A stretch of DNA of 64,000 bases from Candidatus Omnitrophota bacterium (GCA_013203315.1 JABMQJ010000020.1:82289-146288); one strand, 5' to 3'. Counted from the stretch's first letter, positions 880-63,931 are shown. The notes: generated by a model not told the origin, from the sequence alone. Numbers and translations: made by a program.

Positions 880-890
880 ATGATTAAAAA

Positions 891-5353: not shown

Positions 5354-6412
5354 TTATTTAAGGCTTAAAGCTTTCTCCATAATTTCTTCTTCGCTCGGAA
5401 TGCCGCCGCCTGTCCTGCCGTAAAAAGATACTTTTTTATCGTTTTGCACGGCCAGCCGAACGTCTTCTACCATCTGGCCGGTGCTCATTTCAACGACCAA
5501 AAATTTTGTGCTGCCGGTACCGAGCTTTCTTAACGCTTTATACGGAAAAGGCCAAAGGCTTATGGGCCGGAATAATCCTGCTTTTATTTTCTTCTCTCTT
5601 AATCGATCCACACAGGCCTTGGCAATGCGACCTGATGTACCGTAAGCGGCGATTATTATTTTGGCATCCTCTGTTTTATATTGTTCCAATCGTGTTTCGT
5701 TCTTTTTTATTAATTCATATTTCTTTTGCAATCTCCTGTTAAGATCTTCTAATTCTCCGTCTTTCAAAAGTAAGGATCTTATCTTATTGGGCTTTCTTCC
5801 CTTACAACCTGTCAATGCCCAGGGTTTAGATTTTTGTTTTTTAGCTCTGGATTTTTGGTTTATTTCCACAGCTTCCATCATCTGCCCGAGTATTCCGTCG
5901 CCCAATATAATGACGGGGCTTCTGTACTTATCCGCTATATCAAAAGCTGTCCGGGTAAGATCCATCATTTCCTGGCATGAGGCGGGCGCCAAAACCGTGC
6001 AATGATAATCCCCGTGGCCTCCGCCCTTTGTGGCTTGAAAATAATCCGCTTGGCTTGGGGCAATGTTGCCGAGGCCGGGGCCCCCTCTCATAATATTGAC
6101 AATAACAGCTGGGAGTTCGCATCCTGCAAGGTAGGAAATGCCTTCCTGTTTCAGGCTTATCCCGGGGCTTGAAGACGTGGTAATTGCTCTTGCGCCCGCT
6201 ACCGATGCGCCAAAGACCATGTTTATGGCCGCAAGCTCACTTTCGGCCTGTATGAAAACACCTCCCGTTTCATCCATGCGCTTAGACATATAAGCGGTCA
6301 ATTCATTCTGCGGCGTAATCGGATACCCGGCATAAAATCGGCACCCGGCCTGGATGGCCCCTTCGCCGCAGGCTTCGTTACCGGTTATTAATATACGATT
6401 TTTTGTTTTCAT
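5354..6412 (-). CDS. 2-oxoacid:ferredoxin oxidoreductase alpha subunit (VorB-like, 3-methyl-2-oxobutanoate dehydrogenase type)
   Basis: GNEA, YAGYPITPQ, QAESE, SSSPGISLKQE, RGGPGLG motifs. Start moved to ATG 6412, which overlaps the upstream stop (ATGA). Confidence 0.92.
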   Translation of the reverse strand: MKTKNRILITGNEACGEGAIQAGCRFYAGYPITPQNELTAYMSKRMDETGGVFIQAESELAAINMVFGASVAGARAITTSSSPGISLKQEGISYLAGCELPAVIVNIMRGGPGLGNIAPSQADYFQATKGGGHGDYHCTVLAPASCQEMMDLTRTAFDIADKYRSPVIILGDGILGQMMEAVEINQKSRAKKQKSKPWALTGCKGRKPNKIRSLLLKDGELEDLNRRLQKKYELIKKNETRLEQYKTEDAKIIIAAYGTSGRIAKACVDRLREKKIKAGLFRPISLWPFPYKALRKLGTGSTKFLVVEMSTGQMVEDVRLAVQNDKKVSFYGRTGGGIPSEEEIMEKALSLK

Positions 6413-17671: not shown

Positions 17672-17687
17672 GATTTTATTGAAAATT

Positions 17688-17843
17688 AACCCTGCATGCG
17701 CCGTTTCAAAATGAAAAACTTTGGTCCGTCTTTTGTATAAGTGGGTGCCCTCCTCTTATATCCAAGGACATAAGAGAGTTAGGCTCCCGAGACCATTTTG
17801 TTGGATCAAGTTTTATCATCCCAATCACGAGCGCCGCAGGGTT
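17688..17843 (-). ncRNA. ssrS: 6S RNA
   Basis: Closing stem AACCCTGC...GCAGGGTT, inner pairing CTTGATCC/GGACCAAAG, conserved GGGAGC...GGCACCCAC helix around an A-rich central bubble; position downstream of pheT is typical. Ends approximate. Confidence 0.85.
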
Positions 17844-17862
17844 GTAGTTTTTACCTATAAGT

Positions 17863-25928: not shown

Positions 25929-25944
25929 ATCTCTCGTTTTAAAG

Positions 25945-26030
25945 TGCCGGAGGCCGGACTCGAACCGGCACGGCCCTTACGGACCACAAGATTTTAAGTC
26001 TTGGGCGTCTGCCAATTCCGCCACTCCGGC
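25945..26030 (-). tRNA. tRNA-Leu(TAA)
   Basis: Anticodon arm CAAGA-CT TAA AA-TCTTG, long variable arm, CCA not encoded. Confidence 0.95.
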
Positions 26031-26045
26031 AAAACAAATTGCTCT

Positions 26046-26138
26046 GCAGCAAAGTTAATCTGCCCCTCGGAATCGCAAATCCTCCCATAGGTAGGATTTG
26101 CGATATTCCTCGGGACAAATTTTGCTTCACAAAATCTG
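26046..26138 (-). repeat. Structured palindromic element, copy A (homologous to 63762-63854)
   Basis: Long hairpin CCC-GA-GGAAT-AT-CGCAAATCCT-ACCTATGGG-AGGATTTGCG-ATTCC-GA-GGG preceded by hairpin CAGATTTTGT-GAA-GCAAAATTTG; lies between two tRNA genes. Confidence 0.8.
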
Positions 26139-26213
26139 GTGGGCGCAATAGGAGTCGAACCTATGACCTCCACGATGTCAACGTGGCGCGCTAACCAACT
26201 GCGCCATGCGCCC
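26137..26213 (-). tRNA. tRNA-Val(GAC)
   Basis: Anticodon arm CCACG-TT GAC AT-CGTGG, encoded CCA. Confidence 0.96.
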
Positions 26214-26218
26214 GAAAG

Positions 26219-26289
26219 AGGCGCGAACCGGAATCGCACCGGTGTACAAGGTTTTGCAGACCTCTGCCTAACTACTCGGCCATCGCGCC
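26219..26289 (-). tRNA. tRNA-Cys(GCA)
   Basis: GGCGCGA acceptor, anticodon arm GAGGT-CT GCA AA-ACCTT, U73 discriminator, CCA not encoded. Confidence 0.94.
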
Positions 26290-63391: not shown

Positions 63392-63464
63392 GGGCGGTTG
63401 GCGCAGTTGGTAGCGCGTCTCGTTTACACCGAGAAGGTCGCAGGTTCGAGCCCTGCACCGCCCA
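63392..63464 (+). tRNA. tRNA-Val(TAC)
   Basis: GGGCGGT/ACCGCCC acceptor, anticodon arm TCTCG-TT TAC AC-CGAGA, CCA not encoded. Confidence 0.95.
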
Positions 63465-63485
63465 CGTTCGCCGGAGGCGAACGTG
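63463..63485 (+). repeat. Perfect 10-bp hairpin with GGA triloop at the tRNA-Val 3' end
   Basis: CACGTTCGCC-GGA-GGCGAACGTG; no U tract follows. Confidence 0.75.
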
Positions 63486-63510
63486 ATCCTGAAACAACAC
63501 AAAAAATGCG

Positions 63511-63762
63511 ATGAAAAAATGGTTTTTGTATATCGTAAAATGCAAAGACAGCTCTTTATATACCGGTATTACAACTAATCTCGAAAAACGAGTGAAGCGA
63601 CACAACGAAGGTATGGCAACTAAGTATACAAGAGGCAGAAAACCTGTAAAACTTGTATATAGTAAAGCTTGCAGCAATGAGTCTTCAGCGAGAAAAAAAG
63701 AGATAGAGCTAAAAAAGTTGCCGCGAAAGAAGAAGTTGGAATTGATAAATAAAGTTCTTTAG
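63511..63762 (+). CDS. Stand-alone GIY-YIG nuclease (UPF0213 / YhbQ-YazA type)
   Basis: FLYIVKC.D.SLYTGIT.NL.KR...HN.G...KYTR.R.P..LVY...A.K.E..LK. Confidence 0.92.
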   Translation: MKKWFLYIVKCKDSSLYTGITTNLEKRVKRHNEGMATKYTRGRKPVKLVYSKACSNESSARKKEIELKKLPRKKKLELINKVL

Positions 63763-63854
63763 CAGCAGAAATTAAGGTACTTCGGAAATAATCAATCTTT
63801 CCATAGGTCGGATTGATAACATTTCCTCAGTATCAAGTTTTCTTCGAAAACTTG
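63762..63854 (-). repeat. Structured palindromic element, copy B (homologous to 26046-26138)
   Basis: Plus strand TACT-TC-GGAAAT-A-ATCAATC-TTTCCATAGGTCG-GATTGAT-AAC-ATTTCC-TC-AGTA, then CAAGTTTTC-TTC-GAAAACTTG. Confidence 0.75.
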
Positions 63855-63931
63855 GGGACGTGGCGTAGCTGGTTTAACGCGTCAGACTGTCGATCTGAAG
63901 ATCGCGGGTTCGAATCCCGTCGTCCCCGCCA
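63854..63931 (+). tRNA. tRNA-Asp(GTC)
   Basis: GGGGACG/CGTCCCC acceptor, anticodon arm TCAGA-CT GTC GA-TCTGA, G73, encoded CCA. Confidence 0.95.

Follow-up and report, generated by a model that had tools for sequence, protein, structure and literature searches.

A two-hairpin DNA repeat family at gene borders of Omnitrophota and its candidate GIY-YIG nuclease partner

Two structured tRNA spacers and their repeat family

In a stretch of 64,000 nucleotides (nt) from Candidatus Omnitrophota bacterium (GCA_013203315.1 JABMQJ010000020.1:82289-146288), here called the window and numbered from its first letter, two spacers next to tRNA genes are members of one two-hairpin DNA repeat family of Omnitrophota. 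The first member, copy A, is a solo module located in the 106-nt spacer between tRNA-Leu(TAA) and tRNA-Val(GAC), both of which are encoded on the minus strand. The second, copy B, sits between an open reading frame (ORF) of 83 codons and tRNA-Asp(GTC), both on the plus strand. The ORF encodes a single-domain GIY-YIG nuclease, and copy B forms the right end of a cassette that contains it. The coordinates of all features are collected in Table 1. The original prediction, made from the sequence of the window, had aligned positions 26046-26138 with 63762-63854 and proposed that the two are homologous. All sequence blocks quoted for this alignment were found to be present, and 58 of 99 alignment columns are identical when both copies are read on the minus strand. 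The predicted location was correct and the predicted extent slightly short, as can be seen from the module borders in the table.

Read on the minus strand, both copies start with CCA, which leads into a hairpin of 9-10 bp with a GAA triloop (hairpin 1) and then into a long hairpin (hairpin 2). In hairpin 2 of both A and B, the outer and inner stems are split by a symmetric GA/GA loop, and a second GA/GA loop lies below a small apical loop. A tail of 15-20 nt extends beyond this hairpin. Copy A begins with ACCAGA, the CCA of which forms the 3′ end of tRNA-Val(GAC), and copy B begins with CCCAAG, where the C's are the complement of the 5′ end of tRNA-Asp. The GAA triloop, the GA/GA internal loop and the CCA start had been predicted for both copies, as had their opposite orientations relative to tRNA transcription, and all of this was observed. 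The stems differ in sequence and keep their pairing, again in agreement with the prediction: CCC/GGG in one copy corresponds to TACT/AGTA in the other, and CGCAAATCC/GGATTTGCG corresponds to ATCAATC/GATTGAT. Folding of the two copies together with RNAalifold gave 26 pairs, 8 of them with both sides changed. Folding of copies A and B was markedly better than that of shuffled sequences on both strands, with z-scores between -3.75 and -7.53. No Rfam family fits copy A or copy B at the gathering score, and no credible match appeared at E-values up to 10; within the window, matches above the gathering threshold were limited to tRNAs and one 6S RNA.

A BLAST search of the same genome (1.5 Mb, 32 contigs) with copy A missed copy B and returned only two weak partial matches elsewhere, so that a covariance model was needed to find further members of the family. 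A first model was built on copies A and B alone. In this genome it detected five further strong copies (E 1e-6 to 1e-14) and one weak copy, eight in total. The seven strong copies, on which a second model was built, show 95.6% of cells paired and 15 of the 26 pairs changed on both sides. None of 500 shuffles reached the observed covariation score, and slid controls paired at 28-53%. Thus, selection on structure, which had been proposed from the two copies, is shown by covariation across the seven. With the second model, copies were found in 27 of 61 related genomes at E≤1e-3, a count that includes this genome. Modules were present in 12 of the 13 genomes of the same family, and the largest number in a single genome was 35. 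An even sample of the whole phylum, searched at E≤1e-5, gave modules in 15 of 151 genomes, including four that do not belong to the class.

The family module has a size of 85-105 nt when read on the strand that corresponds to the minus strand of the window. Its usual hairpin 1 is CAAATTTGC-GAA-GCAAATTTG, the outermost C-A/T-G pairs of which use the CA of the target. Among 45 copies, the loop of hairpin 1 is GAA in 32 and is embedded as C-GAA-G in 27. The stem is preceded by C in 31 of these copies, and the commonest stem ends, CA...TG, are found in 18. In hairpin 2, the outer stem is followed by a tandem GA/GA loop and by an inner stem that differs between copies through compensatory changes; above it lie another GA/GA loop and a small apical loop of variable sequence. 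The module closes with a short tail that resembles GAAGGACCTTA. Among public DNA runs, only one gave a contig that spans copy A, and this contig is identical to the window over 25962-26166. A public RNA run covers only the tRNA parts at a likeness of 85%, and its reads probably come from other organisms. In the open-access and bioRxiv literature, no account of tRNA-end GIY-YIG hairpin modules in bacteria was found.

Gene borders, empty sites and the nuclease cassette

The position of the modules was compared with the borders of annotated genes. In this genome, six of the eight best copies overlap the end of a tRNA called by ARAGORN by 3-6 bases, in each case at their hairpin-1 end (P about 2e-20 under random placement). 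Three of these follow the 3′ end of a tRNA on the same strand (Val-GAC, Tyr-GTA and Ala-CGC), and the other three read as the complement of sequence immediately before a tRNA 5′ end (Asp-GTC, Arg-TCT and Ala-GGC). Of the remaining two copies, one has no adjoining RNA gene and the other lies at a tRNA 5′ stump. This stump is the 44-nt 5′ part of a tRNA with a CAT anticodon (G000:C2:about 5962-6008; L008:1458-1504, minus strand), comprises the acceptor strand, the D arm and the anticodon loop, and is a copy of neither tRNA-Met gene. No 3′ half was found over a distance of 900 nt, and the stump is called by neither ARAGORN nor Rfam. An intact third tRNA gene with a CAT anticodon at G000:C2:6005 was considered and rejected, as only the 5′ stump is present. 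ARAGORN reports no tRNA-Ile in this assembly. A hairpin scan of the flanks of 40 tRNA genes additionally revealed shorter variants of the module at Ser-TGA, Ser-CGA, Pro-TGG, Val-CAC and Val-TAC. Altogether, a module or short variant is found at one end of 11 of the 40 tRNA genes, and 29 are without one.

For the relatives, positions were assigned to 37 of 38 matches on 28 loci, with one match that is cut by a contig end left out. Nineteen of the 37 copies abut a tRNA, 13 in sense and 6 in antisense orientation. Among the other 18, three have their hairpin-1 end at the 5′ end of a different structured RNA, namely 5S rRNA in a 23S-5S spacer (L027:1390-1597), tmRNA (L018:288-770) and a thiamine pyrophosphate (TPP) riboswitch (L029:1403-1598). 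Three more abut tRNA-like ends that were missed by the programs or masked. In a further six, the complement of the first bases of the module (CTCCA and similar) is the ribosome-binding site GGAG in front of an ATG. Six of the 18 are without an explained boundary. Apart from these six, hairpin 1 meets a gene boundary with single-base accuracy, in either orientation. The original prediction that the element targets tRNA ends therefore describes the majority of copies in this genome and about half of those in relatives, and it was too narrow, because 5′ ends of 5S rRNA, tmRNA and a riboswitch as well as ribosome-binding sites are also bordered by modules. Such placement may stem from active targeting or from the persistence of insertions that are tolerated. 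Where the tRNA gene encodes its CCA, the first two bases of the hairpin-1 stem are the CA of this CCA. As empty sites also carry CCA, the triplet is assigned to the target and is no part of the module. At one locus in G013 (L019:1605-1674), a module adjoins a sequence that resembles the 5′ part of a tRNA and continues into a long hairpin, and that is called by neither ARAGORN nor Rfam; this may be a tRNA with an insertion or intron.

The occupancy of a given site differs between close relatives, so that empty sites, which had been suggested as something to look for in close strains, could be recognized. Where the window has the 11-nt spacer listed in Table 1, the genome G001 of the same genus carries a whole module-GIY-YIG-module cassette, which replaces the spacer from CCA to TGG. 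In G008, a solo module lies between tRNA-Ser(CGA) and tRNA-Ser(GGA), where this genome has 14 nt. Two solo copies on contig C19, at tRNA-Arg(TCT) and tRNA-Ala(GGC), are about 95% identical (5 differences in about 104 nt), and their flanks are unrelated. Both start directly after the tRNA border and end at ACCTTA. They represent a recent duplication of a solo module. Such solo copies without an ORF fit the proposal that the element is non-autonomous. In the Cys/Leu/Val tRNA cluster that contains copy A, both module occupancy and gene order vary among the five genomes compared. The order is Cys-Val-Leu in the window (25944-26289) and Cys-Leu-Val in four relatives (L030, L032, L038 and L040). Recombination between modules may have reordered these tRNA genes.

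The spacer between tRNA-Val(TAC) and tRNA-Asp(GTC) is wholly filled by a module, the ORF and an inverted module, with hairpin 1 directed outward on both sides. On the left, hairpin 1 is followed by ATCCTGAAAC, the opening of hairpin 2, and the remainder of the module is absent before the start of the ORF. On the right, the stop codon of the ORF lies inside the tail of copy B. The protein of 83 amino acids (aa) consists of one GIY-YIG domain with no other domain. Among solved structures, the UPF0213 proteins 1zg2 and 1ywl (96-107 aa) come closest to it, and no NCBIfam model fits it. It is the only stand-alone GIY-YIG protein of the genome, the other match being UvrC-like. Because the cassette lies between two tRNA genes and on their strand, it is probably co-transcribed with them.

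Among relatives, strong modules on both sides of the ORF with hairpin 1 outward were observed in G001, G005, G007 and G031, and on one side in G012, where the left end has decayed by a deletion between two GAAG words. Of the best 30 GIY-YIG loci of relatives, 22 have a tRNA within 400 nt, and in all 22 the ORF and the tRNA share a strand. The site behind tRNA-Val(TAC) holds all five closest homologues (59-100% identity), in three cases with tRNA-Asp downstream. Further GIY-YIG clades lie at Leu(GAG)/Glu(CTC), Lys(TTT) and Tyr(GTA), across families (loci L041-L070). This tracking of clades and tRNA sites suggests either site-specific lineages or very old residence. Seen from the modules, a GIY-YIG gene is present in 3 of the 28 best-module loci. 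GIY-YIG genes occur in 58 and genes for Y1 transposases in 52 of the 61 genomes; a correlation of presence and absence is uninformative, since both are too common. At L059 (G008:C19:20534-20773), a GIY-YIG gene lies between tRNA-Leu(GAG) and tRNA-Glu(CTC) with spacers of 34 and 14 nt and no modules.

Table 1. Modules, nuclease gene and bordering tRNA genes in the window
Feature	Position	Strand	Remarks
Copy A, solo module	26043..26140	-	110.7 bits (covariance model)
Copy A, A73-CCA of tRNA-Val(GAC)	26140-26137	-	
Copy A, hairpin 1	26138-26116	-	stem CAGATTTTGT/GCAAAATTTG, loop GAA; first two bases are the CA of CCA
Copy A, hairpin 2	about 26114-26063	-	two GA/GA loops
Copy A, tail	26062-26043	-	
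tRNA-Val(GAC)	26137..26213	-	encoded CCA is the 5′ border of copy A
tRNA-Leu(TAA)	25944..26030	-	12 nt past the tail of copy A
Copy B, right-end module of the GIY-YIG cassette	63759..63857	-	111.3 bits (covariance model)
Copy B, complement of tRNA-Asp G1-G4	63857-63854	-	
Copy B, hairpin 1	63854-63834	-	loop GAA
Copy B, hairpin 2	about 63832-63778	-	
Copy B, tail	63777-63759	-	includes complement of the TAG stop of the ORF (63760-63762)
tRNA-Asp(GTC)	63854..63931	+	right cassette border; first base pairs within hairpin 1 of copy B
Single-domain GIY-YIG nuclease gene, 83 aa	63511..63762	+	PF01541, residues 3-75, E 4.9e-20
Degenerate left-end module	63463..63500	+	15.5 bits; 21.1 bits, E 0.014
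Left-end hairpin 1	63463-63485	+	CACGTTCGCC GGA GGCGAACGTG; begins at the CCCA end of tRNA-Val(TAC)
tRNA-Val(TAC)	63392..63465	+	left cassette border
Empty site, 11-nt spacer	880..890	.	between tRNA-Glu(CTC) 802-879 and tRNA-Leu(GAG) 891-977

A putative single-stranded DNA repeat served by the nuclease

By analogy with described systems, we lean towards the reading that the modules are a non-autonomous repeat that acts as single-stranded DNA (ssDNA), is served by the GIY-YIG nuclease and works like the Ssn/NTS systems. The whole looks like a small kind of selfish DNA. That the element would act as DNA and not as RNA, as had been predicted, is argued from orientation: strand-specific features, namely the GAA loop of hairpin 1, the C-GAA-G context and both GA/GA loops, are kept in sense as well as antisense copies. 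In DNA, both G-A pairs and mini-hairpins of the GAA type have an unusually high stability. We infer from this that the active form would be folded ssDNA.

By analogy, the closest known system is Ssn/NTS. As described in the main text of the article that introduced them, Ssn proteins are single-domain GIY-YIG nucleases of about 94 aa that bind the NTS/SRM hairpin repeat exclusively as ssDNA and exclusively on one of its strands, with the cut placed upstream of the repeat. The layout NTS-ssnA-NTS is frequent for their genes, and these hairpin-repeat systems were first described in 2025, in Neisseria and mostly Proteobacteria (PMC11893778, Chenal et al. 2025, Nat Commun). Neither tRNA nor Omnitrophota is mentioned in the main text of that article, and the supplements examined contain neither Omnitrophota nor a link to tRNA. 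The likeness to Ssn/NTS/SRM covers several features. In both cases the protein has a single GIY-YIG domain and a length of about 85-95 aa (83 aa here), one or a few genes per genome are accompanied by many dispersed hairpin repeats, and inverted repeats that point outward with their 5′ ends enclose the gene. The direction of the repeat is set by its non-palindromic parts, and the repeats are almost all intergenic. The SRM repeats around an Ssn-type gene of Sphingopyxis (L205) are inverted with 5′ ends outward, as in the cassette of the window. On the other hand, the module comprises 85-105 nt with two different hairpins and GA/GA loops, whereas the SRM repeat is a single hairpin of 28 nt, and the module differs from Ssn/SRM in being placed exactly at the ends of tRNA and other RNA genes.

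In a BLASTP comparison, the protein encoded in the window shows 31% identity (47 bits) to the SRM-flanked Sphingopyxis protein (L205), and it retains the aligned Tyr, Tyr, Arg, His and Glu positions. A small GIY-YIG protein of Neisseria lactamica (L202) was considered as a possible SsnA and rejected, as L202 starts with MNASNW and the SsnA primers given in PMC11893778 encode MQPAV. Because of this different N-terminus, L202 was used only as a UPF0213-type comparator. No NTS flanks the L202 gene. An NTS-motif scan of genome contigs gave 80 loci, in which no GIY-YIG ORF was found within 700-nt flanks by tblastn and motif search.

If the modules work in this manner, the following steps could be envisaged. 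Modules would act as folded ssDNA, and the nuclease would recognize them strand-specifically and nick at or near the junction between CCA and hairpin 1, as Ssn proteins do upstream of NTS hairpins. Host repair or recombination could then copy modules or entire cassettes beside other exposed CCA sites. Insertions into leaders, trailers and spacers of tRNAs survive, since they are removed from the tRNA by RNase P and the enzymes of 3′ processing.

Several findings weigh against this reading. With respect to the DNA step, that the module is bound or cut as ssDNA is something that we infer, and predicted DNA folding favours the strand used in our model by just 0.2-2.8 kcal/mol, although it does so in 7 of 7 copies; the calculated energies of the two strands are too close to discriminate between them. 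GIY-YIG enzymes hydrolyse DNA and, to our knowledge, strand joining is not known for them, so that the spreading step would have no known chemistry. No target-site duplication was seen at the G001 site, where the cassette substitutes the spacer rather than being plainly inserted into it, and duplication is also absent at the filled and empty sites of the G008 pair and at the two recent C19 copies. With respect to the partner, strong module matches (>40 bits) flank only 6 of the 30 GIY-YIG loci, and most GIY-YIG genes of the class are without modules. A plain-sequence inverted repeat with z≥5 was found at one of the 30 loci, with two more at z 4.7-4.9; it is mostly through the structure model, and less from plain sequence, that the inverted layout can be seen. 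In G006 (13 modules) and G008 (12 modules), none adjoins a GIY-YIG gene. In G003, whose nuclease is the closest homologue (78%, at the same site), the right end retains hairpin 1 only. The link between module and nuclease may partly reflect a common niche in tRNA spacers, over which the excess is about five-fold by a rough estimate from informal arithmetic. Finally, the SRM motif HGTCWYN(0-2)YYVSBRHN(0-5)WNVSBRGN(0-2)RNCYNB fits 0 of 15 module copies, and it gives 9 matches in the genome compared with 4-9 in five shuffles. The window protein has its higher identity, 37% (60 bits), with the UPF0213-type protein L202, and judged by these alignments it leans to the UPF0213 side rather than the side of Ssn (cd10448). 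A match to an already described family would have refuted the original prediction; the SRM and Rfam results speak against such a match. Overall, its reading of the spacers as a non-autonomous DNA element, selected for structure and placed at the ends of tRNA genes, is supported.

A broader claim is conceivable, and we hold it to be doubtful: the modules and cassettes might constitute a new class of mobile DNA, made up of a hairpin-ended cassette and non-autonomous single ends, that spreads via ssDNA and lands exactly 3′ of CCA at tRNA and stable-RNA genes. It would be driven by a UPF0213-type single-domain GIY-YIG hydrolase in place of a DDE, HUH, serine or tyrosine recombinase, with two bases of the target recognized through pairing at the foot of the terminal hairpin. 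If so, the large UPF0213/YhbQ-like family would gain a first biological role, and a set of structure-specific ssDNA nucleases with long two-hairpin recognition sites would be added.

Other explanations and implications

We consider it unlikely that the modules act at the RNA level, that is, as hairpins in the tRNA-operon transcript that serve as processing or stability signals by guiding or blocking RNases and protect the ends of the nuclease mRNA. All modules are located in regions that are transcribed and processed (leaders, trailers and spacers of tRNAs, 5′ untranslated regions and the 23S-5S spacer), and the orientation of the GIY-YIG ORF along the tRNA strand at all 22 loci with a nearby tRNA is in line with such a role. 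Once RNase P and the 3′ processing enzymes have acted, hairpin 1 would form the extreme end of the mRNA. As RNA, either strand folds well, and a sigma-70-like promoter can be read by eye in the flank just beyond the module upstream of tRNA-Ala(GGC). However, GAA and GA/GA are kept in modules of either orientation, and the RNA of half the copies would thus carry UUC and UC/UC instead. The absence of a fitting Rfam family also speaks against an RNA signal. In addition, the presence of a module at a given tRNA differs among close relatives, 29 of the 40 tRNAs here do without one, and the near-identical copies at unrelated tRNAs point to spread at the DNA level.

It is quite unlikely that the module is a passive palindromic spacer with no nuclease partner, spread or homogenised by gene conversion or illegitimate recombination, with which the GIY-YIG gene merely shares a safe niche. 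Such a spacer would agree with the distance of most modules from GIY-YIG genes, with the many GIY-YIG genes that lack modules and with the tracking of tRNA sites by GIY-YIG clades across families, which resembles long vertical residence. Decay by deletions between short repeats and the variable tRNA gene order around modules would be expected as well. In contrast, the base-exact border at many unrelated genes and the inverted module pairs that flank the ORF in five genera are difficult to reconcile with passivity. Compensatory changes keep both hairpins and the GA/GA loops across family- to class-level divergence, and selection on the fold itself is therefore needed.

Compared with these, mobilisation of a REP-like or IS200/IS605-like element by a Y1 (HUH) transposase appears very improbable. 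Two Y1 genes (PF01797) are present in this genome (G000:C18:80273-80767, with Y1_Tnp at 80318-80653, and G000:C25:111375-111776), the one on C18 only about 1.6 kb before the start of the window, and Y1 genes are widespread among the relatives (52 of 61). Y1 enzymes act on ssDNA hairpins and insert 3′ of a short target with no duplication, a mode that agrees with the border after CCA and the missing target duplication. Yet with filters off, a scan with the covariance model to a distance of 1 kb from the two Y1 genes gave no significant match (the best had 8.8 bits and E 0.47), and the C18 gene (164 aa) has inverted repeats of its own on both sides, 19-22 nt long and unrelated to the modules. 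No Y1 gene was found in G007, G008, G016 and G028, which contain 6, 12, 4 and 9 modules, respectively, and are 80-94% complete. The ends of IS200/IS605 elements carry similar hairpins on one strand, while the two hairpins of the module are unlike each other. Hence, of the two kinds of enzyme gene that the original prediction had proposed to look for near the modules, GIY-YIG nucleases were found, and no module was found at the two Y1 genes of this genome.

The structural parallels to such elements are nevertheless instructive. Like REP/BIME-RAYT systems, the modules are short, structure-conserved extragenic palindromes in many copies, the single-copy enzyme gene is flanked by inverted repeats, and the copies would be non-autonomous and act as ssDNA. 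They differ from REP/BIME-RAYT in that the candidate partner is a GIY-YIG hydrolase and not a Y1/HUH transposase, no GTAG-type head was seen, and the modules are longer, contain two hairpins and lie exactly at RNA gene ends. With IS200/IS605 elements and the miniature derivatives of these (PATEs), they share subterminal hairpins and a border directly 3′ of a short target without duplication, and a possible pairing of the target CA with TG of the element at the hairpin foot is reminiscent of IS200/IS605. This pairing comprises 2 bp within a stem, in comparison with a 4-nt guide in IS200/IS605. Furthermore, no TnpA or TnpB is associated with the modules, and the cassette ends are inverted copies and not two hairpins on one strand.

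Two further candidates were rejected. A miniature inverted-repeat transposable element (MITE) of a classical DDE transposon does not fit, as no target-site duplication was seen and a solo module corresponds to one end and not to a pair of ends. The second candidate was a free-standing homing endonuclease of the T4 SegB type. The GIY-YIG gene of SegB is likewise lodged between tRNA genes and transcribed with them. However, GIY-YIG homing enzymes of this type are much longer, have a DNA-binding domain, cut the double-stranded DNA of the allele that lacks the gene and have no hairpin repeat family, whereas the protein considered here is an 83-aa single domain.

The case differs from the systems described in 2025 in several respects. 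With its defined fold of two hairpins, the repeat has three times the length, and the nuclease appears to belong to a neighbouring, uncharacterised subfamily. The repeat is also tied to tRNA gene ends at single-base precision, in genomes of 1-2 Mb with little spare DNA. Should the nuclease cut the modules, a testable route for the spread of such repeats would be available, a third of the tRNA flanks in this genome would be accounted for, and new ssDNA cutters specific for sequence and structure would be at hand. In genome annotation, modules should be masked, since they resemble structured RNAs and contain the stop codons or ribosome-binding-site borders of adjacent genes. The 6S RNA gene of the window (Rfam RF00013, 63.8 bits) lies at 17685-17845 on the minus strand.

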